The position numbers and the translations under genes are program-made. Under the pieces are notes generated by a model. That model was not told where the DNA came from. It saw nothing but the letters and a program-made list of their open reading frames with translations, and made no database searches. From an uncultured Planctomycetaceae bacterium (GTDB lineage: Bacteria; Planctomycetota; Planctomycetia; Pirellulales; PNKZ01), in assembly GCA_964652155.1 (NCBI GenBank), contig CAZZBK010000008.1, forward strand, positions 15,261 to 79,260: 64,000 bases of DNA, in the 5' to 3' direction. How positions within the stretch are numbered: position 1 is the first letter of the stretch; each line of letters begins with the position of its first letter. Positions 36,642 through 58,505 of this stretch are shown one piece after another.

Positions 36642-36647
36642 GCAGCG

Positions 36648-37397: not shown

Positions 37398-37486
37398 AAA
37401 AGCTTATCTCCAAGCATCTGCAATTTAAGGAACACGTATGATTCAACGGCGCGTCAAGCGACGGTTGCCAGACATGTGCTGCCGTC

Positions 37487-38341: not shown

Positions 38342-38435
38342 TATGCCAGCGGTGTCAAGAGATATTCACGGTGGACGACAAGTGAGACCCATAAAGCAAT
38401 TGCATGGATACAGGGTTTATCAACTCCCCCATCGG

Positions 38436-39422: not shown

Positions 39423-39483
39423 GGGATCTCCGGAAATGAATGGTGTTCAAAAGGCATGTTGGCGACAGCGAGCCTCGTGGTCT

Positions 39484-40707
39484 TCATGCTTGGCTTGCCA
39501 TGCATTGGTAAAATTCACCCAATCGTTGGGATACGCCCTGGATATCAACGGCTGAAAACCGGTCGAGCGAGTACTCAAACTGGTTGTTCATGGCGCGCTG
39601 TAGCACGCTTCGCGGATCACGAAAGAACGACGCATCCGCGTTCACGACACCGGTGCCATAGCGACGAGCCAAGGAGTGCTGGAAACGTTGCCCAGGGTGA
39701 TGAATCACGCCGATCCCCGCTGAGATAAAATCAGCCACGCGCGACGAACCACAGCCCTCAATCGCCTCAGGCGCGATGTTGTCGAACGGTTCTTCCATTG
39801 CGAGTCGATCCGTGACCGCCGTGCCATAATCATAGCGCGTCAGCATCCGCCAGTAATCATCATCATAGACTTGGTCTTCAATGTGAAAATACGGCGTCAT
39901 ATATTGCAAGCGATAATAATCGGTCGCGTCAGGGTGACCCTGGAACTGATGCAAGTTGAAGTAGAGATGAACATGGATTTGATGTGCGCTGAGAATCTGG
40001 AACACACGCAACATGCTGCAATCGCCGCCGCCAACCCAGCCGATGCTGACGACATGGATCTCGCCCGGTGTATGCGGTTTCCGATGCGGTTCAATGCCCT
40101 CGGGCAAATGCCACAGGGGGTCATGCAAGAAGATACTGCGACGAGGTCGTTCGTAGCCCCGCTGTCGAATGAGGTACCGAATGCGCAGGTCGCGATACAC
40201 GAAGCCGTCGGCATTCGCAATGCACCACCGTTCCAGCATGTGACGCTGTATCGGCTCGTTCTTAAACTCACTACAAGGGTCATAAATATCCAGAATCACC
40301 GGCTTGGTCTTGTACGTCAAATACAAAGCGGCCTGATCGCCAAACGGCGTGAACAAATGCACGATCGGACCAGGAAACAGCCATTGTGCCAGCAGCAACA
40401 GCAGATGATTCTGCACGACGTGAGCAATATGAAAATGATCGCGAACATTAAATTTCGGCTGGTTCAGGGTCACCAAGATCGGCGTCCAGCCCGCCTGACG
40501 TGCGGCCTCCGCCAAGCGAATCTCTCGGCTATGGGTCACGATGGACAAGAACAAGACCGATCGGGCTCGCACCTCGGGGGGGAGCGAAGCAAACGACTGA
40601 ACCAACTGCGGACAAGCCTGTTCGAGCACCGCGCGCGCAAATTCCGCGCGGCCCTCAGTTGGTATTTGAGGGAGCAAAACTTCCAGCGGCTGGCCGTTAA
40701 CAATCAC
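39484..40707 (-). CDS. Hypothetical protein (407 aa), possible GT-B-like fold; no family recognised
   Basis: Its GTG start overlaps the upstream stop (GTGA at 40704-40707), so it is co-translated with the sugar genes. No motif I can name. Confidence 0.6.
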   Translation of the reverse strand: MIVNGQPLEVLLPQIPTEGRAEFARAVLEQACPQLVQSFASLPPEVRARSVLFLSIVTHSREIRLAEAARQAGWTPILVTLNQPKFNVRDHFHIAHVVQNHLLLLLAQWLFPGPIVHLFTPFGDQAALYLTYKTKPVILDIYDPCSEFKNEPIQRHMLERWCIANADGFVYRDLRIRYLIRQRGYERPRRSIFLHDPLWHLPEGIEPHRKPHTPGEIHVVSIGWVGGGDCSMLRVFQILSAHQIHVHLYFNLHQFQGHPDATDYYRLQYMTPYFHIEDQVYDDDYWRMLTRYDYGTAVTDRLAMEEPFDNIAPEAIEGCGSSRVADFISAGIGVIHHPGQRFQHSLARRYGTGVVNADASFFRDPRSVLQRAMNNQFEYSLDRFSAVDIQGVSQRLGEFYQCMASQA

Positions 40708-41816
40708 TTGAGCTTCTCGGCGATGTCAAAGGCCTGGGCAATGCAGTCGTCGATGTCGATGTAGCGGTAGCTGCCGGCCCGACCAATCGAGAAGACCCTC
40801 TCGGGCATCAGGTCGAAATACTTCTTGGCCAGCGCCCGCTCGCTTTTGATCGGCATGGCATAGTGCTTGCCGTTCATCGAAGGAAACTCGATGCCGATGA
40901 GCGTCGTCGGCGACTTATGCTGAGTGAACTTTTTGTACTCGACAATCCGTTTGTATTTTTCCTGGCCCGAGTAGTACAAAAAGAACACGTCGTCGGGAAA
41001 GCATTGCTCCATCGGCAGCACGATCGGGTGGAAGTCGAGTCCGACGAATCTCAGTTCACCGAAGCAATACTCGAAGAGAATGTCCGGTGCGATCGTGTTG
41101 ATGACCACGTCGTAGGTTTGCCATTCTCCTTTGAGCTTGACGCGACGTTGGGGGATGTCGTACTGCTCGATCTTCGTGGCCAGATGAACCTTGACATCGG
41201 CCGTTGAGATGCCGAAGTAATCGTCGTAGCCGTTGGCCGCGTAGGGGTAGGCCGTGATGCGGTCGGTAAAGCTGGCCCGGGCACCCGTGTGCAGCAGCGC
41301 ACCTTTGCTGGTCCAGGCCGGGACGGCATCGTCCAGCTCTTTGTTGCTGTCGACGAGCCACATCTTTTTATTGTAATACTTGCCAAACTTCTCATAGAGC
41401 GTGGGCCCCACCGATCCCAACCAGTAATCTTCGAGATTGGCCGAGGCCTCGCCGGTCGTCGCGGCCGCCAACTCGCGCTTAATCTGGTCGCGGTCGGGCA
41501 TTCGCTCGATGTCGTCGACGTGCATCGGAAAGTTGTAAAACTCTTGGTCGCGCTCCACATAGGTGAGAAACACATGCTTCAGCGGTCTGAGCGGCACATA
41601 CTGGTTCAGGAAGTGAAACAGCCGCTCGTCTTCCGTCAGAAAGTGTCGCGGGCCGAACGTGTGGGGATGCCCGCCGTACCATTGCGTGCGCACTCCCGCG
41701 CCCAGGAACGGGGCAGCCTCGACCAGCGTGACGTCCCAGCCGCCTTGCAACACCAACTGATGGGCGGCCGCGCAGCCGGCAAATCCACCGCCAATAACCA
41801 ATGCTGTTTTTTTCAT
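40704..41816 (-). CDS. UDP-galactopyranose mutase-like FAD enzyme (nucleotide-sugar pyranose/furanose mutase)
   Basis: ALVIGGGFAGCAAA FAD fold. C-terminal GRAGSYRYIDIDDCIAQAF parallels the Glf motif GRLAEYKYYDM. Size 370 aa. Confidence 0.7.
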   Translation of the reverse strand: MKKTALVIGGGFAGCAAAHQLVLQGGWDVTLVEAAPFLGAGVRTQWYGGHPHTFGPRHFLTEDERLFHFLNQYVPLRPLKHVFLTYVERDQEFYNFPMHVDDIERMPDRDQIKRELAAATTGEASANLEDYWLGSVGPTLYEKFGKYYNKKMWLVDSNKELDDAVPAWTSKGALLHTGARASFTDRITAYPYAANGYDDYFGISTADVKVHLATKIEQYDIPQRRVKLKGEWQTYDVVINTIAPDILFEYCFGELRFVGLDFHPIVLPMEQCFPDDVFFLYYSGQEKYKRIVEYKKFTQHKSPTTLIGIEFPSMNGKHYAMPIKSERALAKKYFDLMPERVFSIGRAGSYRYIDIDDCIAQAFDIAEKLK

Positions 41817-41857
41817 GCGTGACTCGTTCTCGATCGATTGCGACTCAACTCAAAACC

Positions 41858-42520
41858 TTAATCGGGCATTAAAAACCACCAGCAGTCGCCGGTGTAGCCC
41901 ACCTCGTTGAACAATTGCTGCCACTCGTCGGTGCTCATGTACGTTTTGCACGTGACAATCCAGCTCTCCAGCCGGGCTTTTTCGGTCGGCGTGCGATACG
42001 CGTCGACCATCACAAACGAGTGGCCGCGCGACACACGCTCGATCTCGCGCAGCGCCTGTTTGCACTCATCGAGCGGCAAATTGTGAATCGTGTTGATGGC
42101 CGTCACCAGGTCGAACGATTTCGATTCGTAGGGCAATTCATGGGCGCTCCCCACACGCAGATACGGACGCATGTCCTCCAGACTGTTGGCAATGGCGTAG
42201 TCAGAAATATCCAGCCCCGCCACGGTCGCCGCCGGCATTAACTCCTGGAAGTCGTGCAGCATGAACCCTTTGGCACAGCCAATGTCGAGAATCCGAGCGT
42301 CGGGCTTGAGCTGGTAGTGGTCACGAAATCGCTTCACCGTCGCTTGCCAAAAGCGCGGATGGTAGTTGTAGCCACCGTAGCCGTACAGGCGGTCGCCATC
42401 GAAATAGTCTTTGCCGTACAGGCGCGAGATCCGCCGCACCTCATCCGACACCGCCTCGCTTCGCTGCTCGACCACGCGTTTCGACTGCGGGTATTGGTCC
42501 ATCAGGTTGATTTCAGCCAC
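41858..42520 (-). CDS. Class I SAM-dependent methyltransferase
   Basis: ILDIGCAKGFMLHDF (motif I) and FDLVTAINTIHNL. A GTG start at 42520 lies 9 nt after GGAGG (42530-42534). Confidence 0.85.
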   Translation of the reverse strand: MAEINLMDQYPQSKRVVEQRSEAVSDEVRRISRLYGKDYFDGDRLYGYGGYNYHPRFWQATVKRFRDHYQLKPDARILDIGCAKGFMLHDFQELMPAATVAGLDISDYAIANSLEDMRPYLRVGSAHELPYESKSFDLVTAINTIHNLPLDECKQALREIERVSRGHSFVMVDAYRTPTEKARLESWIVTCKTYMSTDEWQQLFNEVGYTGDCWWFLMPD

Positions 42521-42526
42521 AGGGCA

Positions 42527-43447
42527 TTACCTCCGCACAATCGTCTGAAAAACGGTTTCGGCGTCAATGCCATGCGCCTTCCACAAGTCTTGCGGCGTGC
42601 CGAAGACGTGGATGAACTCGTCCTTGAGCGAGAACGTGACCAAGTCGCACGTGGCGCGATACTCGTAGGCCAGCGCCTTGGCCTGAGCCGCCAGGCCGGC
42701 CCGCTCACTGTGCTCTTCGATGATCACGACCCGCGAGTACTTTTGATAAATCTCGCGCAACCGTGACGAGTCGAGCGGTTTGATCGTCGGCACCGAAAAG
42801 AGCGCGGCCGACTGTTTCAGTTCTTTCTCGACTCGCGCGGCAATCTCGCTGGTCATCTTCATGATCGGGCCATACGACAGAAACGCGATGTCGCTGCCCG
42901 GCTTGATCAAGCGAATCTTGCCGAACGTGAATGGCTCGACCGCGTCGGCCGTGAGGGTCGGCTCCCCCGCTTTGCCCAACCGCAAGTACGTTGGCCCGGG
43001 ATGATCGGCACACGCCCAGGCGGCGGCGACCGTTTCAAGCGGATCGCACGGGGCAAGAATGCTCATGTTGGGCAATCCGCCCATGATGGCAATGTCTTCT
43101 TGCGCATGATGCGTGCCGCCGAGGGTCGAGTAGGCCAACCCGCCGCCAATCCCCACGACGGTCACCGGCAGATTCTGATAACACAAGTCGACGCGAATTT
43201 GCTCGAACGGACGGTACAGCGAGAACGTGGCAATCGAGTAGGCAAAGGCCTTGCAGCCGCGCATCGCGAGCCCAGCGCATGCGCCGATCATCGATTGCTC
43301 GGCCACGCCTACGTTATAAAACCGATCGGGAAATTCCTCGCGGAACTTGGCCATGCTGCCGGCCGGAGAGATGTCGGCCACCACGATGAACACCTTGGGA
43401 CGCGCCTTGGCAATGTCATACAACGTGCGAGAGAATGTGTCGCGCAT
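42527..43447 (-). CDS. Transketolase, C-terminal (pyrimidine-binding) subunit
   Basis: VGVAEQSMIGACAGLA and GGTHHAQEDIA motifs. ATG at 43447. Confidence 0.88.
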   Translation of the reverse strand: MRDTFSRTLYDIAKARPKVFIVVADISPAGSMAKFREEFPDRFYNVGVAEQSMIGACAGLAMRGCKAFAYSIATFSLYRPFEQIRVDLCYQNLPVTVVGIGGGLAYSTLGGTHHAQEDIAIMGGLPNMSILAPCDPLETVAAAWACADHPGPTYLRLGKAGEPTLTADAVEPFTFGKIRLIKPGSDIAFLSYGPIMKMTSEIAARVEKELKQSAALFSVPTIKPLDSSRLREIYQKYSRVVIIEEHSERAGLAAQAKALAYEYRATCDLVTFSLKDEFIHVFGTPQDLWKAHGIDAETVFQTIVRR

Positions 43448-43449
43448 GA

Positions 43450-44274
43450 TTAGTTGCCCCCCAATTCGTTGACCGCCTGTTGATACTCGGCCGGGTTGGG
43501 CGAACGATAGTGCCAAATGGGCACGTTCTCCATGTAGCTCACCCCCTTGCCCTTGGTCGTGTGACCGATCACAAACATCGGCCGCTCGCCGCTCCGGCGA
43601 CTGACCGCGTCATAAACCGCCTGCGGGTCGTGGCCATCGATCTCGGCCGTCTCCCAGCCGAAGGCCTTGATCTTGTCGACGATCGGATAGAAATTCGGCA
43701 GCACCTCGCTGGTCCGACCCAGCGATTGGAAGTCGTTCAGATCGACAAACGCGACCAGATTGTTGAGCTTCCAAGAGGGAGCGAGCATCAGGGCTTCCCA
43801 GACCGAGCCCTCTTGCAACTCGCCATCGCTCTGCACAACAAACGTCCGTCGATCGACGTTGAACACCTTATCGTGCAAGGCCATCCCCAGCGCGAGCGGC
43901 AAGCCGTGGCCAAGCGAGCCGGTCGAGGCTTCAATGCCCGGCAGGCCAATGTCTGGATGCGTCCCCAGGATGCCCCCGGCCTGACAAAACCGATCGAGCT
44001 CTGCCTTGGGCAGAATGCCGAGCTTTTCGAGGACGACATACTGGGCCAGCGAGCCGTGTCCTTTGGACAAAATAAACGAGTCGATGTATTGGTTGTCGCT
44101 GTCGCGTCGCATCAGCGCGTGGTACACGACGTCGACCATCTCAAGGCACGAGAAGGCGCCGGCACCGTGGAGGGCCGTGACCTTTTGCGACAATTCGAGG
44201 ATCCGCAGTCGGTAGCGCCGGCAGCGCTCGCGGCTCGCGGCGAGGTCAAACGGGGTCATGGGGCTTGGGCTCAT
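43450..44274 (-). CDS. Transketolase, N-terminal (ThDP-binding) subunit
   Basis: LSKGHGSLAQY, STGSLGHGLP and SDGELQEGSVWEA motifs. Confidence 0.88.
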   Translation of the reverse strand: MSPSPMTPFDLAASRERCRRYRLRILELSQKVTALHGAGAFSCLEMVDVVYHALMRRDSDNQYIDSFILSKGHGSLAQYVVLEKLGILPKAELDRFCQAGGILGTHPDIGLPGIEASTGSLGHGLPLALGMALHDKVFNVDRRTFVVQSDGELQEGSVWEALMLAPSWKLNNLVAFVDLNDFQSLGRTSEVLPNFYPIVDKIKAFGWETAEIDGHDPQAVYDAVSRRSGERPMFVIGHTTKGKGVSYMENVPIWHYRSPNPAEYQQAVNELGGN

Positions 44275-44310: not shown

Positions 44311-45195
44311 TTACTTCTCTTCGGCCAGCATTTGTCGCAATCCGATCTCCAAATCGACCGGCTGCACATTCGGGAAAGCCCGCAAGCGATCGCTCACGTC
44401 AAAGTGGCGGTGCGTGATCGGGTTGGCCCGCGGTGACGGTACGATTTCAACCGCTTTGCCCACAAGTCGGGCCACGATCGTCGCGGCATCAAAAAACGAG
44501 ACGCTCTTGCCCGTGGCGACGTTGAGCACGCCTGAGCTACGGTGTCGCAACGCCTCGACCACGATACGAGCCACGTCGTCGACATGGATATGATCGCGCT
44601 GCTCCTCGCCGCCGCCAAAGAGCGCGATCTTGCCGTCTTTGCGAGCCGTGCGGACAAAACGATTCGGGCCGTAACTGTTGTGCGGATCACTGGCTCCATA
44701 AATGACACTCGGCCGCAGCAGCGCTAAAGGAATGCCCGGCTTCTGCAGCGTGGTGGTCAGCATGACCTCGCGGGCCAGATGCATCACGCCGTGATAACTG
44801 GCCGGATGGCATGGCGAGTCACTGCGGATCAGCGCGTCGTTGTCGCTATACACCGCGTCCGAGCCAATGTAGACGACGTGGTTGCAACGCGTTTTCTCGA
44901 TGGCCTGGCAGACGTTTTGCGCCATCGACAAATTACGCATCAACGTGGCAATATCTCGGCCGCGTGAGGGTGCCAAAGCCGAGACAAACACGAGCGCGTC
45001 CGTCGGTTTGAGGATGTGCGCGAGCTGCTCAACCGCCTCGGCTTGGCACAAGTCCAGGTCGCAGGAGGCGAGCGACAGGTGATCGAGCTGGCGCGCGGCG
45101 AGTTGCCGCACGATGGCTCGGCCGACGAACCCTGAGCCGCCGAGGACGACGACTCGCTGGGGATTTTGTGGCGTGGCAAGATGATGCGTGATCAT
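44311..45195 (-). CDS. NAD-dependent epimerase/dehydratase family protein (atypical)
   Basis: VVVLGGSGFVGRAI Rossmann motif. The ATG at 45195 overlaps the upstream stop (ATGA). I did not find a canonical YxxxK. Confidence 0.75.
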   Translation of the reverse strand: MITHHLATPQNPQRVVVLGGSGFVGRAIVRQLAARQLDHLSLASCDLDLCQAEAVEQLAHILKPTDALVFVSALAPSRGRDIATLMRNLSMAQNVCQAIEKTRCNHVVYIGSDAVYSDNDALIRSDSPCHPASYHGVMHLAREVMLTTTLQKPGIPLALLRPSVIYGASDPHNSYGPNRFVRTARKDGKIALFGGGEEQRDHIHVDDVARIVVEALRHRSSGVLNVATGKSVSFFDAATIVARLVGKAVEIVPSPRANPITHRHFDVSDRLRAFPNVQPVDLEIGLRQMLAEEK

Positions 45196-46475
45196 ACGTT
45201 TCCTTGTCGTGGGGCGCAGCCCAGGCGGTAGTAATCGAGGCTGGCCGACTCGCAACGAGCACCGTCGAGCACGCCGTAAGGATCGATCACCGTGCGGCCG
45301 GCAAGACGTTCACGGATCGCGCGAGGGTCGACCTGAGCGAATGCTTTCCAGGGGGTGACAATCGCGAGCGCCGCGGCCCCTGAGCAGGCTTCGAGCGCCG
45401 AGCCCACCTGGGTGCAATGCGGCGCGTCGGTCAATGTTGCCTGCGGGTCATACGCCTTCAGTGGGACATGCCGCAGCGCGTGGATCAAATCGACGGCGGG
45501 CGAATTCTTAGTCGAGGTCGTGTCGGCCTTGTAGGCGATGCCCCAGACGGCCAACGGGGCGGCGGGCGAGTGTCGCAGCACGCGGTCGTGTAGCTCGCCA
45601 AGCACCCAATCGCGGCGGTGTCGACTGTTGATCCGCCATGCCTCGACGATGCTCGCGTCGGCACCGTGCTCAGCCGAGAGGCGGCTGATTGTCGCCCAAT
45701 CGCGCTCCAAGTTGCCCCCCGCAATGCCCAGCCCGGGACTCAAATAAGCGTAAGGGCCAATGCGGCGATCGAGACGCAAGGCCGGGGCGATTTCCGACCA
45801 GTCGGCGCCAATTCCCTCGCATACCTCGGCGAGCATGTTCGTCACACTAACCGACGAAGTGAGATACATGTTGATAGATATTTTTGCCAGCTCGGCACTC
45901 TCGTACCGCATGGGCATGATCGGACAGTTGAACGCTTGCAGCAGCCGCTCAAACGCCTCGGGGAGCGTCTGCTGGGGATCGCGACAACCGACCATATACC
46001 GCTCGGGTTTCATGGCCCGTTCGACGGCCGCGCCGAAGATGAGCGTTTCCACCTGATAGAACCACAGCGGCGTCTGGGCTCGATAACGGTTGGCCAGTCG
46101 GCGGGTGAACCCTGGCGTGACTTGGCTCAACAGGACGTAGACGGTCTGTTCGTTGGCCGCGCGAGTCATGACGGATTCGATCAAGTGTTCGAGCGCGGTC
46201 GTGTCGCTCTGACCTCGGTCGTCGGTGGCGATATCCAAGGCAAATACGACCACTTCGCAATCGCGAAGAGACTCGACGGTGGTGGTTGGCTTTAATCGCG
46301 TCGAGTTGACCGCAAGCAACTCGGCGAGGCCGGGCTCGAAGAACGCCGTTTGGCCACGCTGGAGCGGCGTGACGATCTCGGCGCGGTCATCATACGCCAC
46401 GACGTCGAAGCCGTGCGCGGCAAAAGCGGCGGCGGTGTTAATGCCCAAGTGCGAGAGTCCGGCGACGCCGATCAT
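45192..46475 (-). CDS. UDP-glucose/GDP-mannose dehydrogenase family protein, catalytic Cys position occupied by Asn
   Basis: N-terminal Rossmann IGVAGLSHLG and AELAKISINMYL motifs. PGLGIAGGNLERDW aligns to the canonical PGFxFGGSCLPKD, with N (codon 45711-45713) at the Cys position. Confidence 0.75.
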   Translation of the reverse strand: MIGVAGLSHLGINTAAAFAAHGFDVVAYDDRAEIVTPLQRGQTAFFEPGLAELLAVNSTRLKPTTTVESLRDCEVVVFALDIATDDRGQSDTTALEHLIESVMTRAANEQTVYVLLSQVTPGFTRRLANRYRAQTPLWFYQVETLIFGAAVERAMKPERYMVGCRDPQQTLPEAFERLLQAFNCPIMPMRYESAELAKISINMYLTSSVSVTNMLAEVCEGIGADWSEIAPALRLDRRIGPYAYLSPGLGIAGGNLERDWATISRLSAEHGADASIVEAWRINSRHRRDWVLGELHDRVLRHSPAAPLAVWGIAYKADTTSTKNSPAVDLIHALRHVPLKAYDPQATLTDAPHCTQVGSALEACSGAAALAIVTPWKAFAQVDPRAIRERLAGRTVIDPYGVLDGARCESASLDYYRLGCAPRQGNV

Positions 46476-47398
46476 GCTGCCGCCTCTTCCTGGGTCGTGG
46501 TCAACTGCCGTAGGGCCGCGTGAATGACTCGATCGGTGGCGATGTTGGACTCGCCCCGCTCGCAGAGTTGCAAAAAGTGTTCGTATTCAAGTTGCCAAGT
46601 CGGATCGGCACATTCGATCGTTTCCGACTCTTCCAGGGGCCGACCGCTGGGCAATACGCGCTTGCGAAGCGTCCACGTGCTGGGTCCCCACTTGCACAAA
46701 CAGTGAACGTGCATGCTGCCCAGTTCGCCGAAGAGATCGAGCTGAAAGGTATTTCGCCAGGAGACCATCGTGGCCTCAAAGATCAACTGCGGACTGGGCT
46801 TATTCGAGCCGAATAGCACATGGTCGGGCGCACGGTTTTCAAAGCGATCGATGCTCCACGGCCTGAACGCGCGACCCTCCAATCCCAGGCCAAAGAAGTC
46901 GACGAGGTCGAGCAGATGCGAGCCGATATCGGTGAGCACGCCCCAACCCTGATCGCGCCAGGCCGAGTTGCGCACATCTCGGGCAGTGCCGTTGCCATAG
47001 AACATCCGCAACAAGTAGACCTGACCGAGCACGCCGCGTTGCAGGTGCTCGCGGACCCGCATCAGATGAGGTTCAAAGCGATGATTGTAAGCCGTGTAGA
47101 GCGTGACTCGCTGGCGGTGCGCGAGTTCGCTCAGTTCATCGAACTCGGCCTCGCTGGCGAGCAGCGGCTTCTCGACCAGCACGTGCTTGCCGTGAGCGAG
47201 CAGATAGCGGAGGCATTCGACCTTGGCGTCGTCGGGCGTGCAGAGGCAGGCCGCGTCATAGCGGTCGAGCGGCACGTCTTCGATCCGGCGATACTCGGCC
47301 ACGGGCGCAACAGGGTCGACCGTCGTGACGACGTGCGACTGAGCGACCTGTTGTCGCTTGCGTCCCTGATTGCCGAGCCCGACGATCGCGAGTCTCAT
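46472..47398 (-). CDS. Gfo/Idh/MocA family oxidoreductase
   Basis: MRLAIVGLGNQGRKR and LVEKPL motifs. ATGA overlaps at both ends. Confidence 0.85.
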   Translation of the reverse strand: MRLAIVGLGNQGRKRQQVAQSHVVTTVDPVAPVAEYRRIEDVPLDRYDAACLCTPDDAKVECLRYLLAHGKHVLVEKPLLASEAEFDELSELAHRQRVTLYTAYNHRFEPHLMRVREHLQRGVLGQVYLLRMFYGNGTARDVRNSAWRDQGWGVLTDIGSHLLDLVDFFGLGLEGRAFRPWSIDRFENRAPDHVLFGSNKPSPQLIFEATMVSWRNTFQLDLFGELGSMHVHCLCKWGPSTWTLRKRVLPSGRPLEESETIECADPTWQLEYEHFLQLCERGESNIATDRVIHAALRQLTTTQEEAAA

Positions 47399-48939
47399 TC
47401 GTAGTTGACCTGCTTTTCGACGGTGCGCAATTTACTCAATACTTGCTCAGGCGCGACGGGCGAGTTGCCTTCGTGCTCACAGGCGATCGCGGCGCTCATG
47501 CTGCCGAGAATCGAGGCGATGACGCATGAGCGGGACGCGGCCAGCCCGAGAGTTGCATACGACAGCAATGCATCGCCAGCGCCGACCGGATCGACCAAGC
47601 GATCGACGAACGAGTCGACCGTGAAGAACGACCGCACCTCGCTGTTGGGCGCGCGATACGTGATCAGCCCGCGGTCTCCCATCTTCAGGATGAGAAACTT
47701 GCACTCGGCTCGCTTGTACAGTTCAAGCGCCAACGGGCGGACGGTCGAATCCTGATCGCCAAGCGCGAAGCGTGCTTCACGCTCGTTCGGGGTGATCAGA
47801 TCGAAGCCACGAAAGTCGAGAATGTTACCCCAGCGGCTGGCCACCTGACTGTCGGCCACTTTCAGCACGTGATCGGGAATCGCCTCGGTCAGTTCGCTCA
47901 CGCTCTGACGGTTAAACAGTCCGTGACGAAAATCGCTGAACACGACAATATCGGCCGGCTCGCTGGCAAGCTGCGTTTTGAGCGTGGCGAGGATCTTGTC
48001 TGAAATCGGCCGATTGTCGAGCTTGTCGACCTTGAGCATTCGATACCCGCCGGCAATAAAAACGTTCTTCTGAATCGTGGGCCGGGTGCGGTCGACAATC
48101 GGCAGCGCCTTGACTCCGGCGTCTTGCAGGTCGTTGAGGACAAAGTCTTTGAACGGGTCATCACCGAGCACGCTCGAGAAGGTCACCTCGGCCCCTGCGC
48201 GGCGCAGGTGCTTGGCGACGATCGCCGCGCCACCGGAATAATCGACCTGATTCTCGAATTTCAGGCTCATCGTGGGCGTTTTGCCCACGCCGCCCGTGGG
48301 AGAGCAGAACGTGTACGAGTCGACGATCGTGTCTCCCAATACGTGGACGCGCAAGCCGGGAAACGTGGCCAGTGTGCGACGCAAGTCGTCGAACGTGACC
48401 GACTCGGACTCCATGAGCACGTGCAACTTGTCTGCCGAGAGGTTGGGAGGCGAGGCTTCGATGACCGCCGACGACGAATAGATCACATCCCCCGGCGTGA
48501 AGATGATCTCACCGCCGTAGCTTTCGAGCACCGCGAGCTCTTGAGCTGTATTGGGATGGATACCTGCCGCGTTATATTCATAACCCTTGGCAAAATAGTC
48601 GGGCTGAATAAACTTCAGGTTGTCGAGTGGCGTGGGGTTGTCGTCGATTACGACGTAGTCGACGACCTCGAGCGCGGCGAGGTTCATCGCCCGCAATTGC
48701 TGTGGCACGTAGGGTCGCAGATTGGCCTTTTGGATGTGCGCGTCGCAGGTCAGGCTGACAATGAGCTTGTCGGCCTTGCTCTTGGCGTACATCAGGTGGC
48801 GGATGTGGCCTGGGTGGACGATATCGAACGTGCCGTGGCACATGATGACGGTCGCGCTGCGCGGGCGTGGGCCGATGTCGGCGACCAATTCTTCGCGGGT
48901 CTTGATCTTGCGGCGATAGTTGGGCGTTTCGCTGCTCAC
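47395..48939 (-). CDS. Bifunctional nucleotidyltransferase (N-term, HxGH) / PfkB sugar kinase (C-term); HldE-like with swapped domain order
   Basis: N-terminal CHGTFDIVHPGHIRHL (cytidylyltransferase superfamily). C-terminal VLGDTIVD...DPVGAGDA (PfkB). A GTG start at 48939 follows GGAGAA and overlaps the upstream stop (GTGA). Confidence 0.8.
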   Translation of the reverse strand: MSSETPNYRRKIKTREELVADIGPRPRSATVIMCHGTFDIVHPGHIRHLMYAKSKADKLIVSLTCDAHIQKANLRPYVPQQLRAMNLAALEVVDYVVIDDNPTPLDNLKFIQPDYFAKGYEYNAAGIHPNTAQELAVLESYGGEIIFTPGDVIYSSSAVIEASPPNLSADKLHVLMESESVTFDDLRRTLATFPGLRVHVLGDTIVDSYTFCSPTGGVGKTPTMSLKFENQVDYSGGAAIVAKHLRRAGAEVTFSSVLGDDPFKDFVLNDLQDAGVKALPIVDRTRPTIQKNVFIAGGYRMLKVDKLDNRPISDKILATLKTQLASEPADIVVFSDFRHGLFNRQSVSELTEAIPDHVLKVADSQVASRWGNILDFRGFDLITPNEREARFALGDQDSTVRPLALELYKRAECKFLILKMGDRGLITYRAPNSEVRSFFTVDSFVDRLVDPVGAGDALLSYATLGLAASRSCVIASILGSMSAAIACEHEGNSPVAPEQVLSKLRTVEKQVNYE

Positions 48940-49937
48940 GAAGCTTCTCCTTCGAGCGCCGCAAACCAGCTTTTGGTGGCCTCGCGAATCGAGTCGGGGT
49001 CCCAGACCGGCGCTTGCCGCCAGTAGTCGATGTTCCGCAGCATCTCGGCCACCCCTTGCTCGAAACTCACCTGCGGCTCCCAACCCAACTGCGAACGAAT
49101 TTTGCTAATGTCGGCCCAGGTGCAGTCGGGCTCCCCAGGCCGCTTGGGCACATGCACCACCGGACCTTGCAGCAGTTCAACCAGTCGATTGACCGCCTGC
49201 GGCTTGCCGGCACCCACGTTGAAAATCTCGTGCGAGCGGTCGGTCTCGGCCGCTGCGAGAAAGGCCCTGGCCAAATCGGTGACGAAAACGAAGTCCCGTG
49301 TCTGCGTGCCGTCACCCACCACGGTGAACGGTTTGTTGGCCAATTTTTGGGCCAGAAACACGCCGAACACCGCGCCGTACGCGCCCGTGGTGCGCGAGCG
49401 TGGCCCGTAGGCATTAAAGATCCGCACGGAGTTGACCGGCAAGTGATAGACCTTGCCCCAGTGGAGCACGGCCTGCTCGCCCTGATATTTGCTCAGCGCG
49501 TAGGGGTACTTCGTGTCGATGGGGGTCGATTCTTTCGTGGGCAACTCGGTGGTCAGGCCGTAACACGATGAACTGGCCGCGTAGACAAACTTCTTCACGC
49601 CGGCATGTCGCGCGGCTTCGAGTGCCTTGACCGTCCCCATGACGTTGGTCGCCATGTACTCGACCGGTTTTTCGATCGAGGGGACGATATCGCCGATGCC
49701 GGCGAAATGAAAGACGTACTGGGCACCGGCGAAGGCCGGGTCATCCGCGGCCGTTTCGCGAATGTCCTGGTTCACGAAACGGAAGCGCGGATTCGCTTGC
49801 ACTTGGCGCAGGTTGTCGAGCCGCCCGGCATACAGGTTGTCGATGCCGCGCACCTCGAAGCCGCGTTCAATGAGCAGATCGACCATGTGACTGCCGATGA
49901 AGCCCGCCGCGCCGGTCACCACCGCAATGCTAGGCAT
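48936..49937 (-). CDS. NAD-dependent nucleotide-sugar epimerase/dehydratase (extended SDR)
   Basis: VTGAAGFIGSHMVD and YALSKYQGE (YxxxK) motifs. Confidence 0.88.
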   Translation of the reverse strand: MPSIAVVTGAAGFIGSHMVDLLIERGFEVRGIDNLYAGRLDNLRQVQANPRFRFVNQDIRETAADDPAFAGAQYVFHFAGIGDIVPSIEKPVEYMATNVMGTVKALEAARHAGVKKFVYAASSSCYGLTTELPTKESTPIDTKYPYALSKYQGEQAVLHWGKVYHLPVNSVRIFNAYGPRSRTTGAYGAVFGVFLAQKLANKPFTVVGDGTQTRDFVFVTDLARAFLAAAETDRSHEIFNVGAGKPQAVNRLVELLQGPVVHVPKRPGEPDCTWADISKIRSQLGWEPQVSFEQGVAEMLRNIDYWRQAPVWDPDSIREATKSWFAALEGEAS

Positions 49938-50943
49938 GACTGGCGGCCCCTTCGGTCTGCTTCATGAGATGCTTGACGTTGAAGTGTTGCTCGTCGAAGC
50001 TGTTCTTCCACTCGCCGCGACGGAACGCCCGGCACAAATCGCGCACGGCGTCATCAATCGTCCGACGCGGTTTATAGCCCAGCTTCTCGGTGATCTTCTT
50101 CGACGAGACATGATACGAACGCAGATCGTTCGACGAGGTCGTCTCGATGCGGATCGGGGCCTTCTCGGGCATCTCCTGCTCGACGATCTTCTTGGCGATT
50201 TCGGCCAACTGATTGACCGTGTGATTCTCGTAACCGGCGTTGAACGTCTCGCCGGCGATCTTGTCGGCGGGCATGTCAAGCAACTCGACGTACAGATCGG
50301 ATATGTCTTCGATATGAATGTTGGGGCGCTTTTGCGAGCCGCCGAAGACGGTAATCACCCCCTTGTTCACCGCGTGGTTCGTGAGAATGTTCACGGTCAG
50401 GTCAAACCGCATCCGGGGCGAATAGCCACACACGGTCGCAGGACGGATGATGACCGTCGTGAAGTCGGGTGCTTGGTAGCGGAGCAAGATCGGCTCGCAC
50501 ATCCCTTTGTATTTGTTGTAGTCAGTAAGCGGCACGAGCGGATGCTCTTCGGTCACTTCCGGAGCATCGCTGACACCGTAGACACTCGAGGTCGAGGCGT
50601 AAATAAAACGCTTCACGAGAGCGGCTTTGCTGGCCTGGACTATCGGCTCAAAGCAGTCGTAATTGATCGACACGCTCAGCGACGAGTCGAGCTCAAAGCT
50701 CGGATCGTTCGAGATGCAGGCTAGGTGCAACACGATGTCGCAGCCTTTGACCTCGCGGGCAAAGTGCTCGGTGTCGCGAATGTCTCCCTTGACCACCTTG
50801 AGTTTCGGATGCGGCTTGAGCCCCTCGGAGCCAAACAGCATCAGATCGAACACGACGACCTCATGGCCGGCCGCCAACAGCTTGGGAACCGTGATGCAGC
50901 CGACGTAACCGGCTCCGCCTGTGACCAGAATGCGATGTGACAT
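49930..50943 (-). CDS. NAD-dependent nucleotide-sugar epimerase/dehydratase (extended SDR)
   Basis: ILVTGGAGYVGC and YNKYKGMCE motifs. ATG at 50943; the track extension to 51105 overlaps the transaldolase gene. Confidence 0.88.
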   Translation of the reverse strand: MSHRILVTGGAGYVGCITVPKLLAAGHEVVVFDLMLFGSEGLKPHPKLKVVKGDIRDTEHFAREVKGCDIVLHLACISNDPSFELDSSLSVSINYDCFEPIVQASKAALVKRFIYASTSSVYGVSDAPEVTEEHPLVPLTDYNKYKGMCEPILLRYQAPDFTTVIIRPATVCGYSPRMRFDLTVNILTNHAVNKGVITVFGGSQKRPNIHIEDISDLYVELLDMPADKIAGETFNAGYENHTVNQLAEIAKKIVEQEMPEKAPIRIETTSSNDLRSYHVSSKKITEKLGYKPRRTIDDAVRDLCRAFRRGEWKNSFDEQHFNVKHLMKQTEGAASHA

Positions 50944-51052
50944 GGGGACTCGTCTGAGATGAAAGGGGTTAGGGATGATAGGGTTCGGTTCGACTCGCCA
51001 GGGCGAGTTCAAATCGTGCTGCGAAATTTGATCGAGCGCCGCGAGGTCGACG

Positions 51053-51793
51053 CTAGCGACGGCTCCGCGCGGTGCAATCGAGCGTGTAGCCCGCCCGTTG
51101 GGCATCGTCGAAAAACATGTGGACCGTTTCGAGCGAGTAGCTGTCGAGGTCCTTGCCGACGAGCGGCAGCTTGGCGAGCACGTCGGGGGTCACGGTGATG
51201 ACCTGGCAACCGATCGCGTCGGCCTGGAAGATGTTGAGCAACTCTCGGGGGCTGGCCCAGATCAGTTCCCAGTTGGGCTGCGGTGCCAGCAGAGCGACCG
51301 TCTGTCGCATCATGGGAATCGGGTCGCGGCCCGTGTCGGCCACGCGTCCCGCAAAGACCGAAATGTAACACCGCACGGCCGGGTTCAGTGCCGGCAGCAC
51401 GCTTTCGACCTGCGCCAGGGTCATGATCGCGGTGATGTTGACCTGCACGCCATCGGCCGCCAAGCGTTGGATGAGGGGCACACACGACTCGCCGCGAGTG
51501 TTTGTGATCGGGATCTTGACGTAGACGTTTTCGCCCCAAGAGGCAATCTCGCGAGCTTGTGCTTCCATCTCCTCCCAATCGTCGCAGAGCACTTCCAACG
51601 AGATGGGTCGCCCATGAATTCGTGCGAGCACCTGCTTGGCAAATGCTCGGTAATCGACGACCTGCGCCTTGCGCATGAGCGTGGGGTTGGTCGTGAATCC
51701 TTGGATGAGCGGGTTGGCGGCCATCTTCTCAATCACCGGCAACTCAGCGCTGTCGGTAAAGATTTTGACCTTCAATGTGTTGAGCAACGACAT
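51053..51793 (-). CDS. Transaldolase family protein (Fsa/TalC-type)
   Basis: GFTTNPTLM, VYVKIP (Schiff-base Lys) and ISVFAGRVADTG motifs. Confidence 0.85.
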   Translation of the reverse strand: MSLLNTLKVKIFTDSAELPVIEKMAANPLIQGFTTNPTLMRKAQVVDYRAFAKQVLARIHGRPISLEVLCDDWEEMEAQAREIASWGENVYVKIPITNTRGESCVPLIQRLAADGVQVNITAIMTLAQVESVLPALNPAVRCYISVFAGRVADTGRDPIPMMRQTVALLAPQPNWELIWASPRELLNIFQADAIGCQVITVTPDVLAKLPLVGKDLDSYSLETVHMFFDDAQRAGYTLDCTARSRR

Positions 51794-52012: not shown

Positions 52013-52588
52013 CTAATTCGCGCCGTGCGGCTTTAAGCTCCACGGCCCACGCGCCACCAGCGCGGCGTTTTGCAGGATCCAATCCGTAGCCTCGGTGAGC
52101 GTTTTCACGCGGGCATCGGCATGGTCGGGCCGACGCTCCTGGTACTCGGTTTGGATCCAAATTGTTTTGCAGCCCGCAGCCCGGCCTGCGTCGATATCGC
52201 GCCAGCGGTCGCCCACCAGAAACGAGCAGGCCAAATCGATCTCGGCCTGCTGGGCAGCGGCGAGCAACATGCCGGGCTTGGGCTTGCGGCAGTCGCACTC
52301 GTCCGCGTCGACATGGTAGCAAACCCGGATGTCGTCGAGCGGCAACGTGTGCCGCAATCGCTCGTGCATCGCCTCGACCACGGACTGCTGTTGGAGGCCG
52401 GTGCGGACATCGGGCTGATTCGTCACCACGACGAGCCGAAAGCCCGCCACCTTGAGGCGACGCAACGACTCGGCCACATCGTCGTACAGTTGAAACTCGT
52501 CGAGCGTCGCGGGGGGGTAAGGCTTCCCCTGTCGAATGATCGCCCGATTAAGGACCCCATCTCGGTCAAGGAATACGGCACGGTTCAT
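52013..52588 (-). CDS. gmhB: D-glycero-D-manno-heptose 1,7-bisphosphate phosphatase (HAD-IIIA)
   Basis: VFLDRDGVLN, VVVTNQ and CDCRKPKPGM motifs. ATG at 52588; the 339-aa track ORF is an artefactual extension. Confidence 0.88.
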   Translation of the reverse strand: MNRAVFLDRDGVLNRAIIRQGKPYPPATLDEFQLYDDVAESLRRLKVAGFRLVVVTNQPDVRTGLQQQSVVEAMHERLRHTLPLDDIRVCYHVDADECDCRKPKPGMLLAAAQQAEIDLACSFLVGDRWRDIDAGRAAGCKTIWIQTEYQERRPDHADARVKTLTEATDWILQNAALVARGPWSLKPHGAN

Positions 52589-53184
52589 GGCGCGGCCGAT
52601 TCCCATTTGGTGGCCTGGGCCTGGAGCCGCGGATGGCTCACCAGACCGTGCCAAATGACGGCCTGAAACGCCTCGCTGTGGGGCGTGATATGCTTGGGAT
52701 CGACCGTGGGGACGACGATGACTTCGTCGCCGACTTGCTTCGTGTAGCCGCCATCGCGACCGACGATGCCGAAGATTTTCATTCCGCGCTGCTTCGCTTC
52801 TTCGAGTGCGCGAATCAAATTGACGCTGATATTGCGCTCGGCGTTGCCACCGCCGACCGAGAGCACAAAGACCGCGTCGTTCGCCGAGGCCCGGCTGGTC
52901 CGCAGCCAAGCGGCGAAAATCGTCTCCCAACCCTCGTCGTTCGCGCGAGCCGTCAGCTCCGAGACATTGTCGCAGGGGGAGTACGTCTCGATGCCAACGA
53001 TCTTGCGAAAGTCGTTGACCGCATGACTGCAATTGGCCGCGCTACCGCCAACCCCCAAAAAGAACAGCCGTCCTTGCCGCTGCCGCAAGTCAGCCAACGC
53101 CGCGGCGAGACGCTCCATGGCGTCGGCATCAATCGCTTGGGCAATCTGGCTGGCCTGATCCAAGTAGATTCGACTATGTGACAT
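52585..53184 (-). CDS. gmhA: Phosphoheptose (sedoheptulose-7-P) isomerase, SIS domain
   Basis: FFLGVGGSAANCSHAVNDF and VFVLSVGGGN motifs. ATG at 53184; ATGA overlap with gmhB. Confidence 0.88.
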   Translation of the reverse strand: MSHSRIYLDQASQIAQAIDADAMERLAAALADLRQRQGRLFFLGVGGSAANCSHAVNDFRKIVGIETYSPCDNVSELTARANDEGWETIFAAWLRTSRASANDAVFVLSVGGGNAERNISVNLIRALEEAKQRGMKIFGIVGRDGGYTKQVGDEVIVVPTVDPKHITPHSEAFQAVIWHGLVSHPRLQAQATKWESAAP

Positions 53185-55671: not shown

Positions 55672-55707
55672 TTGTGTCGTCTCAAACGATCCGTGTCTGT
55701 TTTATGG

Positions 55708-56544
55708 ATGAGTTTGCCCATGTCGCTCGTTCCATCATTTACCAATTCGCAAGATCAACAGCTAAGCGAAACGTTCCTTCGCCAGGGTTATGTACTCCGC
55801 GACGTCGACAACCGGGCGGCCCTCGACGCCCTGCGGCACGAAGTCGTGAAAATCGTCTGCGAGCATCTGCAACTGCCGTTGCCCGAGGACGATGGCCAGT
55901 TTCTCAACCACGTGCATGAACACGTCGGCGTGGCCAAGGTCAACGAGTTGCGGCTGACCGTGTTCAATCGCATGAACGCCCAGCCGTGGTTTCGTCCCAC
56001 CTACTACGCGCTCGCCAAGTCGACGATCGACACGCTGGTCGGGAACGAATTGGCGATGCAGAACAAGATCAATTTCTCGGTACAGATGCCCAACGATCAG
56101 ACCTCGACGCTGGGCATTCATGCCGACACGTGGTCGGCCGAGACCCCTTTTCAAGTCGTCTGCTGGCTGCCGCTCGTCGACGTCTTTGAAACCAAGGCCA
56201 TGTACATACTGCCGCCACAGTACAATCGCGAGGTGGTCAAGAATTTCAAACAACTCACCGCCGACGGGGGAAGCGCCCAACTGTTCGACACGTATCGCGA
56301 TAAGTTCATTTGGGTCAGCGTTCCCTATGGCCAGGTGATGGTCTTCTCCCCCATCTTGCTGCACGGCAACATCGTCAACGTGACCCGCGAGACCCGCTGG
56401 TCGTGCAACGTCCGCTTCACCGGTTTGTTCACCCCATACACGAGCGACGAGAAGCGGCTGGGGACGTTCTATTTGCCCATCACGACCAAAGTGGTCAGCC
56501 GCGTCGGGATGAATTACCGCGAGCCCGGAGGTTTCAATGAATAA
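55708..56544 (+). CDS. 2OG-Fe(II) oxygenase-like protein (carbohydrate-cluster type)
   Basis: Putative facial triad HxD in LGIHADTW, a distal His in PILLHGN, and a downstream Arg in TRWSCNVRF. ATG at 55708. Confidence 0.65.
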   Translation: MSLPMSLVPSFTNSQDQQLSETFLRQGYVLRDVDNRAALDALRHEVVKIVCEHLQLPLPEDDGQFLNHVHEHVGVAKVNELRLTVFNRMNAQPWFRPTYYALAKSTIDTLVGNELAMQNKINFSVQMPNDQTSTLGIHADTWSAETPFQVVCWLPLVDVFETKAMYILPPQYNREVVKNFKQLTADGGSAQLFDTYRDKFIWVSVPYGQVMVFSPILLHGNIVNVTRETRWSCNVRFTGLFTPYTSDEKRLGTFYLPITTKVVSRVGMNYREPGGFNE

Positions 56545-57007
56545 CGACATCCCCACTTCTCCGCAGCGGATGGGCCTGCGCGGCTATGTGACCCATCACG
56601 AGTTTGCCGGCATGCGCATCCCGGCCCCGGTGCAGAACTTGGTCCTGCGCGACTATGCCGCCCGCAACAAACTCGTCTTCGAGCTCTCGATCGGCGAGTA
56701 CTTTTTTCCCAACTGCCACGTGCAACTCGACGGCATCTTGCGCAACCTCGACAACTTCATTGGCGTCGTGATGTGCAGTTTGTTCATGCTCCCCAAGAAT
56801 GCCGAGCACCGCCACCGCGTGTACCAGGAGTTCATCCGTCACGACGCGGCCTTGCACCTAGTGTTCGAGAGTCTGGTCATTCGTGGCGAAGCCGACATCG
56901 ATCGGGCCGAGGACATCATTCGCTTTCAGAGTGTGTTGAGCCAATGCCCAACGATGATTCCGCGCGAGTTGCTGCCGCCGCTCGAACCGATCGATACATT
57001 CACCTAA
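56537..57007 (+). CDS. Small uncharacterised carbohydrate-cluster protein (recalls the LIC12192-type 'sporadic carbohydrate cluster' family)
   Basis: 156 aa. LRGYVTHHEFAGMRIPAPVQNLVLRDYA opening. The ATG overlaps the upstream stop (ATGAATAA). Family assignment is from memory only. Confidence 0.55.
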   Translation: MNNDIPTSPQRMGLRGYVTHHEFAGMRIPAPVQNLVLRDYAARNKLVFELSIGEYFFPNCHVQLDGILRNLDNFIGVVMCSLFMLPKNAEHRHRVYQEFIRHDAALHLVFESLVIRGEADIDRAEDIIRFQSVLSQCPTMIPRELLPPLEPIDTFT

Positions 57008-58440: not shown

Positions 58441-58447
58441 GACAAGA

Positions 58448-58480: not shown

Positions 58481-58505
58481 AATTCGAGGCGGAGCGCATG
58501 GCGTG

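Follow-up and report, generated by a model that had tools for sequence, protein, structure and literature searches.

Does a protein whose nucleotidyltransferase and sugar kinase domains stand in the order opposite to that of E. coli HldE still serve a heptose pathway, and where did such an arrangement come from? The question is raised by a 64,000-nucleotide stretch of DNA (the window) from an uncultured Planctomycetaceae bacterium (contig CAZZBK010000008.1 of assembly GCA_964652155.1), in which positions 47395-48939 of the minus strand make up exactly one coding sequence (CDS) of 514 codons and a stop. An earlier reading of the DNA letters, hereafter the original prediction, had described this gene as an HldE-like bifunctional enzyme with inverted domain order. 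The protein, here called reversed HldE, is predicted to carry out the kinase and the nucleotidyl-transfer reactions, two non-consecutive activating steps, of a nucleoside diphosphate (NDP)-heptose pathway whose product is then tailored. Judged from sequence, predicted fold and gene neighbourhood, this assignment is probably correct.

Domain order and relatives of the two halves

The three motifs quoted in the original prediction are all present in the single minus-strand CDS: the nucleotidyltransferase (NT) signature CHGTFDIVHPGHIRHL lies at amino acid residues (aa) 34-49, and the kinase motifs VLGDTIVD and DPVGAGDALL lie at aa 200-207 and aa 450-459, respectively. Pfam places CTP_transf_like on aa 34-123 (E-value 1.4e-12) and then PfkB on aa 224-494 (2.8e-26), and the domain-level models of NCBIfam place rfaE_dom_II on aa 27-161, towards the N-terminus, and rfaE_dom_I on aa 191-502, towards the C-terminus. 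Aligned by BLASTP with E. coli K-12 HldE, the protein shows a crossed pattern, in which residues 12-122 of the target align with residues 322-435 of HldE (39% identity, 2e-20) and residues 186-505 align with residues 1-313 (23%, 2e-13); a planctomycete HldE gives the same swapped pattern against the 514-aa protein. Model placement and alignment hence confirm that the order is opposite to that of E. coli HldE.

A structural model of the protein was computed with AlphaFold2 (AF2) from an alignment of 25 family members (pLDDT, the predicted local distance difference test, 81.4; pTM, the predicted TM-score, 0.68). Its secondary structure has helices at aa 167-178 and aa 183-190 in the linker between the two domains, and this linker carries a PPNL..KL..LMESE stretch that is conserved in the close family. 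A fusion created by a frameshift or by misassembly was ruled out, because the same uninterrupted architecture is found in all 120 best homologues and 80 genomic loci obtained in the searches given below, as well as in the 150 best cluster representatives.

The catalytic motifs of both halves are intact in the sequence and either invariant or conserved among family members: HPGH and the SSS loop in the NT half, and GDTIVD, NXXE and GAGD in the kinase half. The kinase half further displays GGA, TPNEREAR (aa 383-390, with the NXXE motif) and VGAGD (aa 452-456, anion hole and catalytic Asp), and in the 25-sequence close-family alignment most of the PfkB anion-hole and NXXE residues are invariant and the rest are at least 90% conserved. 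Its membership of PF00294 is evident from a score of 93 bits against a gathering cut-off of 25.8. Among the NCBIfam models, rfaE_dom_I (TIGR02198) scores about three times higher than any other kinase model, with 127.8 bits as compared to 45 or fewer for iolC, ribokinase or 1-PFK (ribokinase, 40). When the AF2 model was searched with Foldseek, the top seven matches were chains of B. cenocepacia HldA (E-value 3e-25 to 9e-23, TM 0.83), and other PfkB kinases began at 2e-18, seven orders of magnitude behind. The same HldA (PDB 4e84) is found by phmmer at 1.7e-12 with an identity of about 24%. Scaled to a library of 1.84 billion proteins, canonical HldE and HldA stay significant at 73-128 bits, and E. 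coli RbsK is not significant.

The NT half behaves similarly. Its best NCBIfam model is rfaE_dom_II (TIGR02199) with 91.2 bits, followed by a generic nucleotidyltransferase model (45.7) and g3p_cytidyltrns (35.8), and it belongs to PF01467 by score (48.4 bits, gathering cut-off 21) and by its HxGH motif. The latter, HPGH at aa 42-45, does not vary among close homologues and is conserved to at least 60% across the broad set; the KGYEY motif of the domain is conserved too. The closest solved relative by sequence is 5x9q (phmmer E-value 1.6e-16), an HldC-like cytidylyltransferase, which we take to be B. pseudomallei HldC and which the PDB table calls only 'putative cytidylyltransferase'. Among solved structures, HldA (4e84) and 5x9q of Burkholderia are thus nearest to the two halves; unlike the target, both are stand-alone proteins.

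The kinship with heptose enzymes implied by the original prediction is thus found in both halves, as each scores best with a heptose model and has a heptose enzyme or an HldC-like protein as its best solved relative. The same comparisons bear on a different identity, in which a ribokinase-like kinase and a cytidylyltransferase of the glycerol-3-phosphate or ethanolamine-phosphate type would yield a CDP-alcohol or a CDP-pentose. Such an identity would be in keeping with the generic Pfam matches (PfkB and CTP_transf_like only), with the weak matches to the ribokinase, iolC and g3p_cytidyltrns models, and with the name 'PfkB family carbohydrate kinase' that the Prokaryotic Genome Annotation Pipeline (PGAP) gives to relatives. 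However, the heptose models score two to three times higher than any alternative, HldA is ahead of the other structural matches by seven orders of magnitude, significance at database scale is not reached by E. coli ribokinase, and the conserved neighbouring genes are GmhA-like, GmhB-like and Cj1427-like. Clustering with ribokinase and glycerol-3-phosphate cytidylyltransferase, which the original prediction had named as the outcome that would speak against a heptose enzyme, was checked in this way, and the identity was dropped as very improbable.

The conserved cassette and the proposed pathway

Reversed HldE lies in an operon on the minus strand in the order GmhA-like, GmhB-like, transaldolase (Tal), SDR1, SDR2, reversed HldE, Gfo/Idh/MocA oxidoreductase (GFO), NDP-sugar dehydrogenase homologue and SDR3 (SDR, short-chain dehydrogenase/reductase), beyond which a split transketolase, a methyltransferase and a mutase resembling UDP-galactopyranose mutase (UGM) are found (Table 1). 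Four-base start/stop overlaps chain SDR2, reversed HldE, GFO, the dehydrogenase homologue and SDR3; the GTG start at 48939 shares bases with the TGA of the upstream SDR2 gene (GTGA), and the TGA of reversed HldE shares bases with the ATG of the downstream GFO gene (ATGA). A scan of the operon for promoters and terminators gave counts at chance level. The presence in the same operon of the GmhA-like and GmhB-like genes provides the linkage to a sedoheptulose-7-phosphate isomerase and a heptose-1,7-bisphosphate phosphatase that is expected of a heptose-pathway gene.

Synteny was assessed by tblastn of the window proteins against the 80 best loci, 58 of which have enough upstream flank and 59 enough downstream flank. 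The counts for single genes are given in Table 1. At least one of Tal, the GmhA-like and the GmhB-like gene is present in 45/58 loci and all three are present in 35/58; they move as one unit, at times inverted as a block. GFO adjoins the dehydrogenase homologue in most loci, with an SDR3-like gene between them in some (e.g. L010-L015). Across phyla, the median protein identities are 50-70%, which points to a spread of the cassette by horizontal transfer.

Table 1. Positions of the reversed HldE gene, its domains and the surrounding genes in the window, with the number of loci carrying each gene among those with enough flank
Feature	Position	Strand	Details	Loci
GmhA-like SIS isomerase	52585..53184	-	about 199 aa from internal ATG; mechanical open reading frame (ORF) to 53280	42/58
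GmhB-like HAD-IIIA phosphatase	52013..52588	-	about 191 aa; ATG overlaps GmhA-like stop (ATGA)	40/58
Short-type transaldolase (Tal)	51053..51793	-	246 aa; TIGR02134	40/58
SDR1, Cj1427-like NDP-heptose C4-dehydrogenase candidate	49930..50943	-	337 aa; mechanical ORF to 51105	56/58
SDR2, NDP-sugar 4-epimerase/dehydratase-like	48936..49937	-	333 aa; PDB matches	56/58
Reversed HldE, nucleotidyltransferase-then-PfkB-kinase fusion	47395..48939	-	514 aa, GTG start; Pfam, NCBIfam, BLASTP	
NT domain, aa 27-161	48457..48861	-	rfaE_dom_II match	
Helical linker, aa 162-190	48370..48456	-	AF2 secondary structure	
PfkB-type sugar-phosphate kinase domain, aa 191-502	47434..48369	-	rfaE_dom_I match	
Gfo/Idh/MocA oxidoreductase (GFO)	46472..47398	-	308 aa; ATG overlaps stop of reversed HldE	59/59
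NDP-sugar dehydrogenase homologue without catalytic Cys	45192..46475	-	427 aa; TIGR03026	59/59
SDR3, GDP-fucose-synthase/RmlD-like reductase-epimerase	44311..45195	-	about 294 aa	53/59
Split transketolase, accessory	42527..44274	-	N-terminal subunit 43450-44274, C-terminal subunit 42527-43447	18-21/59
Class I S-adenosylmethionine-dependent methyltransferase, frequent accessory	41858..42520	-	220 aa	41/59
UGM-like flavoprotein (GLF domain)	40704..41816	-		near cassette in only 5 loci

Phosphoheptose isomerases account for 11 of the 14 PDB matches of the GmhA-like protein, including the top 11 (best E-value 4e-11); the remaining three comprise two chains of DiaA and a further isomerase. The GmhB-like protein scores higher with the beta-specific heptose-1,7-bisphosphate 7-phosphatase model (NF006506) than with the alpha-specific one (NF050049, 78 bits, cut-off 250), and Tal exceeds the cut-off of TIGR02134 (327 bits against 282). 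The best PDB match of SDR1 is 6vo6/6vo8 (2.6e-41 and 145 bits, the next match having 90 bits), which also leads by fold in Foldseek (3e-24 versus 3e-19 for the next). The Foldseek description confirms 6vo6 as Cj1427, to which SDR1 is 32% identical and which is the C4-dehydrogenase of the C. jejuni capsular heptose pathway (PMC10680097). SDR2 is matched best by UDP-glucose and UDP-GlcA 4-epimerases (7e-49), and comparison of SDR3 tied it to no single characterised enzyme. The dehydrogenase homologue passes TIGR03026 (201 bits, cut-off 190) and is matched best by UDP-glucose dehydrogenases in the PDB. The GGYCLPKD segment of E. coli Ugd is replaced by GGNLERD (Asn for Cys, Arg for Lys) in 69/69 cassette homologues, and the protein therefore cannot form a uronic acid by the usual thioester route.

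Several true starts lie later than those of the mechanical ORFs. The mechanical ORF of SDR1 (49930-51105, 391 aa) runs into the transaldolase gene, and the start is placed at the ATG at 50943 because homologues have 330-340 aa and a 100%-identical database protein has 337 aa. The start of the GmhA-like protein was set by comparison with a 208-aa homologue in a Pyrinomonadaceae locus (L091), and later starts also apply to the GmhB-like, SDR3 and TktC genes. On a 9.6-kb Logan contig, a protein of 581 aa (P0356) has a transaldolase domain (PF00923) fused to an SDR1-type domain, which may reflect a functional tie of transaldolase to tailoring or a local loss of the stop codon.

In the pathway proposed from these domain identities, relatives and the translationally coupled cassette, sedoheptulose-7-phosphate would be drawn from central metabolism, topped up by the cassette transaldolase and, in some genomes, the split transketolase, and the GmhA-like isomerase would convert it to D-glycero-D-manno-heptose-7-phosphate. 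The C-terminal PfkB domain of reversed HldE would phosphorylate the anomeric hydroxyl with ATP to give the beta-1,7-bisphosphate, the GmhB-like phosphatase would take off the 7-phosphate, and the N-terminal NT domain would then activate the heptose-1-phosphate, with ATP as the default guess for the nucleotide and CTP or UTP as possible donors. The Cj1427-like SDR1 would then oxidise C4 of the NDP-heptose, and further tailoring by the epimerase-like SDR2, by GFO with the Cys-less dehydrogenase homologue, and by the reductase-like SDR3 would lead to a modified heptose, the predicted final product, for a surface glycan; the methyltransferase and the split transketolase often join this tailoring set. 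With an HldA-type kinase and a phosphatase that scores better on the beta-specific model, the beta anomer is expected, and the different anomer contemplated in the original prediction is accordingly unlikely.

A number of observations weigh against this pathway. The scores of the heptose models fall far below the curated cut-offs throughout: those for rfaE_dom_I and rfaE_dom_II are 345 and 181.5, the whole-protein HldE model NF008454 gives 148.9 bits in two stretches (cut-off 521), the GmhA-like protein reaches 56 bits on TIGR00441 gmhA (cut-off 209), and the GmhB-like protein reaches 127 bits on NF006506 (cut-off 178). In pairwise comparison, the kinase half is 20-26% identical to canonical heptose kinases and about the same (21%) to ribokinase. 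The NTP-contacting segment of the NT half reads GDVIYSSS, which departs from the (F/L)XXGXSTT consensus at 4/8 positions. Tal, the GmhA-like and the GmhB-like genes are all absent from the flanks in 13/58 loci, no recognisable glycosyltransferase is present in the sugar cluster of the window, and searches of the literature for a reversed HldE or for the cassette found no description or assay. Lastly, Tal is tightly tied to the isomerase and phosphatase genes and is unneeded for a pathway from sedoheptulose-7-phosphate, which recalls the octose route of lincomycin.

The last point leads to an alternative in which Tal, as LmbR, would build octulose-8-phosphate or another higher ketose phosphate, the same enzymes would carry it to an NDP-octose, and GFO and the Cys-less dehydrogenase would act on the side chain like LmbZ and LmbL. 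Kinase and nucleotidyltransferase of lincomycin biosynthesis are separate proteins and belong to other folds, an arrangement unlike that of the reversed fusion. The comparison with lincomycin is one of gene classes: the lincomycin/celesticetin cluster holds a transaldolase, isomerase, kinase, phosphatase, nucleotidyltransferase, epimerase, dehydrogenase, NAD(P) oxidoreductase and aminotransferase together, and the cassette parallels LmbR, N, P, K, O and then LmbM, L, Z, S (PMC12945683). An octose is also in keeping with the joint movement of the Tal, GmhA-like and GmhB-like genes, with the joining of transaldolase to SDR1 in P0356, with the dehydrogenase homologue that lacks the uronic-acid Cys beside GFO in most loci, and with isomerase, kinase, phosphatase and NT scores that all lie far under the heptose equivalog cut-offs. 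The cassette enzymes that were compared by sequence or structure are, in contrast, nearest to heptose enzymes: SDR1 is closest in both sequence and fold to Cj1427, which acts on heptose, the kinase is nearest HldA, and the isomerase is nearest the GmhA structures. Moreover, Tal with transketolase also makes a sensible route from fructose-6-phosphate to sedoheptulose-7-phosphate. An octose product is hence considered improbable.

The heptose pathway being retained, the nucleotide to which the sugar is coupled is a separate matter. The original prediction had suggested that CTP, GTP or ATP might be used. The characterised heptose nucleotidyltransferases carry the motif (F/L)XXGXSTT, and those with Arg at position 5 form the NTP-promiscuous STTR5 group, according to summaries of the work of Tang et al. 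(PMC11573728, PMC11461863). The 514-aa protein falls outside this motif, which marks the HENases of these authors; its close family reads GD(V/I/L)(V/I)(Y/F/L)SSS, the broad family has an aromatic residue followed by S-S-(S/T), and 5x9q has RSTT, of the STTR5 type, at the site of the YSSS of the target. The NTP-contacting motif is thus specific to the family and differs from that of every characterised heptose nucleotidyltransferase.

If the NT domain uses CTP or UTP, the same pathway and sugar would feed a CDP- or UDP-heptose pool set apart from the ADP-heptose of the lipopolysaccharide (LPS) core. Heptose nucleotidyltransferases can make CDP- and UDP-heptose, governed by position 5 of the motif (PMC11573728, PMC11461863), and the reversed family has a conserved aromatic Y/F at this position and SSS in place of STT. 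The tailoring enzymes are, in addition, SDRs of the UDP/GDP-sugar type and a UDP-glucose dehydrogenase homologue, and a separate nucleotide handle would explain a second, divergent heptose set beside a presumed LPS-core need. On the other hand, the NT half has adenylyltransferases as its nearest relatives (rfaE_dom_II and the HldC-like structure), the Arg of the STTR5 motif that confers promiscuity is absent from the target, and base specificity is read from the motif by no known rule, exceptions being noted in the reviews (PMC11573728, PMC11461863). A non-ADP nucleotide is a possibility to be held only tentatively.

Some features of the surroundings deserve mention. Split transketolase genes or E1-type thiamine-dependent genes adjoin reversed-HldE genes even among the 30%-identical plasmid homologues (L082, L083); the split transketolase could supply sedoheptulose-7-phosphate or add a two-carbon branch onto a keto-sugar. 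Downstream of the reversed genes on both plasmids, a SIS isomerase gene lies within 1 kb, adjacent in Azospirillum oryzae and one gene away in Solidesulfovibrio carbinolicus, and around them both loci hold genes of SDRs or other reductases, of thiamine-dependent enzymes and of the radical-SAM type, with DegT aminotransferases in the A. oryzae locus only. A NUDIX hydrolase gene accompanies the Pyrinomonadaceae cassette (L091, 14950-15402) and the distant A. oryzae cluster (L082, 19664-20239), and may encode a nucleotide-sugar pyrophosphatase tied to these pathways. A Wzm/Wzt-like ABC-2 exporter lies just upstream of the cassette in one Pyrinomonadaceae locus and, like the SIS isomerase and sugar-tailoring genes on the two plasmids, speaks for the proposed pathway. 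In the window itself, the stretch from 36.6 to 57 kb has neither a recognisable glycosyltransferase nor a flippase. At the cluster edges, five ORFs are without a Pfam match (38436-39422, 39484-40707 and 57514-58521 on the minus strand, 55672-56544 and 56537-57007 on the plus strand) and may be unrecognised transferases; those beginning at 55672 and 56537 recur together beside the cassette in two other loci (L018 and L071).

The G+C content is 0.55-0.57 at 36000-42000 of the window and about 0.61 elsewhere. This low-GC stretch, which holds TylF-like and FkbM-like methyltransferases, two ORFs without a Pfam match and the mutase, is shared almost only with the near-identical metagenome-assembled genome (MAG) L001, and this accessory end hence looks like a recent, strain-specific addition. 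Mutases that interconvert pyranose and furanose forms of GDP-heptoses are known in C. jejuni (PMC10680097), so a heptofuranose product made by the UGM-like mutase is conceivable here. Genes for an RmlA-like nucleotidyltransferase (31411-32355, minus strand) and an RmlD-like reductase (33639-34883, plus strand) are separated from the sugar cluster by genes for a rhomboid protease and a protein with a 3-keto-disaccharide hydrolase domain; their position a few kb away suggests that a second pathway, of the dTDP-rhamnose type, may be nearby.

Spread and origin of the reversed order

A search of 5.8 billion proteins gave 7,201 matches at an E-value of 1e-10 or lower, the best 120 of which are 68-99% identical to the target, have about 514 aa and all show PF01467 followed by PF00294. 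With an exhaustive HMMER search, 1,009 matches at 1e-30 or lower were obtained among 1.84 billion cluster representatives (50% identity). The best 150 of these are collinear with the target, and full-length matches in a single stretch extend down to 28-30% identity. A reversed protein of 30% identity reaches about 200 bits in a single stretch, whereas 73-128 bits, split over two stretches, are all that a canonical HldE would reach, so most of the 1,009 representatives must be reversed.

When one genome per species was scanned in a pattern-limited way, at least 261 relatives turned up, of which the best 80 are 64-97% identical. These 80 come from Planctomycetota, Acidobacteriota, Verrucomicrobiota, Omnitrophota, Elusimicrobiota, Myxococcota, Alpha-, Beta- and Gammaproteobacteria, Chloroflexota (SAR202), Bipolaricaulota, Nitrospirales and Binatia. 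They include a Planctomycetaceae MAG (L001) with the gene order of the window and two cultured carriers of the cassette, Azospirillum rugosum and A. cavernae; reversed homologues of about 30% identity are located on plasmids of cultured A. oryzae and S. carbinolicus. Eight MAGs (L007, L009, L027, L028, L037, L043, L054 and L057) bear the titles Akkermansia muciniphila, Klebsiella sp., Bifidobacterium sp., Bordetella parapertussis or Enterobacteriaceae. In their cassette proteins they are similar to MAGs of Verrucomicrobiota and Burkholderiales, and the titles look unreliable.

Proteins of the reversed order thus make up a large and old family that already carries automatic annotations. The names in use are 'rfaE bifunctional protein kinase chain/domain' in IMG and 'ADP-heptose synthase' or 'PfkB family carbohydrate kinase' in GenBank; 'adenylyltransferase/cytidyltransferase family protein' also occurs among the best 120 matches, and RefSeq/PGAP calls the plasmid homologues 'PfkB family carbohydrate kinase'. 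The 'ADP-heptose synthase' and 'rfaE bifunctional protein' names have been transferred without backing from curated models, and 'PfkB family carbohydrate kinase' conceals the second (NT) activity. The original prediction had allowed that its novelty would fall if the order proved common and already annotated, and this is largely what the 150 best representatives, the at least 261 species genomes and the IMG and GenBank labels reveal. A rare or unique fusion was accordingly dropped, the architecture being shared by the 120 best matches, the 80 loci and the 150 best representatives.

The origin of the order was approached with neighbour-joining trees of each half, which contained 112 reversed proteins, five canonical HldE from four phyla, one HldA, and E. 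coli RbsK or CoaD as outgroup. The canonical NT halves group together, apart from every reversed NT half, in a clade with a bootstrap of 96%. For the kinase half, the point estimate unites the reversed proteins in one clade, with a bootstrap of only 50%. Two separate lineages would give this pattern, and a fusion of hldC-like with hldA-like genes, separate from that of canonical HldE, is on this small sampling a plausible and the simplest origin of the NT-then-kinase lineage; the reversed order could also stem from circular permutation of an ancestral hldE that had been duplicated. The independent fusion event of the original prediction is therefore consistent with these small trees and a plausible rather than an established origin. 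Reversed and canonical HldE appear to be separate lineages, the reversed one being deep and widespread.

Relation to known systems and significance of the family

As in E. coli HldE, a PfkB kinase and an HxGH nucleotidyltransferase with the same catalytic motifs are combined in one polypeptide, both halves can be aligned (39% and 23%), and the gene is tied to genes of the GmhA and GmhB types. The two differ in domain order, which is NT-kinase in the target and kinase-NT in HldE and in the HldE model. They differ as well in the GDV(I/V)(Y/F)SSS motif of the target, in its scores far under the HldE equivalog cut-offs, and in its location in a tailoring cassette rather than among LPS-core genes. 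A second, canonical hldE gene is found neither in the 64-kb window nor in the flanks of the 80 loci.

The GDP-heptose route of C. jejuni uses HddA, a GHMP kinase, and HddC, of the NTP_transferase fold, which are unrelated to the enzymes considered here. The only Pfam domains of the target are PfkB and CTP_transf_like; a GHMP kinase and an NTP_transferase, the fold pair of the GDP-alpha-heptose route, are absent, and a relationship to HddA/HddC was dropped because the folds differ. The likeness to C. jejuni lies in the tailoring. Its capsular pathway comprises a C4-dehydrogenase, epimerases, C4-reductases and pyranose/furanose mutases (PMC10680097); the cassette would follow the same logic of C4 oxidation followed by epimerisation and reduction, with SDR1 having Cj1427 as its best match and SDR3 being GDP-fucose-synthase-like, and the window has a UGM-like mutase. 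Unlike in C. jejuni, no cupin-type epimerase was found in the cassette, and the pair of GFO and the Cys-less dehydrogenase homologue is without a C. jejuni counterpart.

The NDP-heptose enzymes described by Tang et al. in 2024 are, in the published summaries, of three types, namely NT alone, kinase/NT and isomerase/kinase/NT (PMC11573728, PMC11461863). They share with the cassette the activities of isomerase, kinase, phosphatase and nucleotidyltransferase, and occur across life in fused and unfused versions that may use ATP, CTP or UTP. These summaries name no NT-then-kinase order, and their hallmark motif is unmatched by the target. The reversed family would thus add a fourth architecture with a different motif to the three types and one motif of those summaries.

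NDP-heptoses are building blocks of the bacterial envelope, and ADP-, CDP- and UDP-heptose are described, in the same summaries, as innate-immune agonists sensed by ALPK1 (PMC11573728, PMC11461863). Members of the reversed family abound in Acidobacteriota, Verrucomicrobiota, Planctomycetota, Omnitrophota, Proteobacteria and further phyla, and the gene marks a highly conserved cassette, with protein identities of 64-75% between phyla, that is also present in the cultured A. rugosum and A. cavernae. We speculate, with some reserve, that the reversed fusion may be the signature of an undescribed nucleotide-sugar pathway shared horizontally across phyla, with a heptose or higher-sugar pool of its own and perhaps a non-ADP nucleotide, which would lead to a new surface-glycan sugar of soil and freshwater bacteria. 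Such a sugar, made by the Cj1427-like dehydrogenase together with GFO and the Cys-less dehydrogenase homologue, could be, for example, a side-chain-oxidised, branched or chain-extended heptose.

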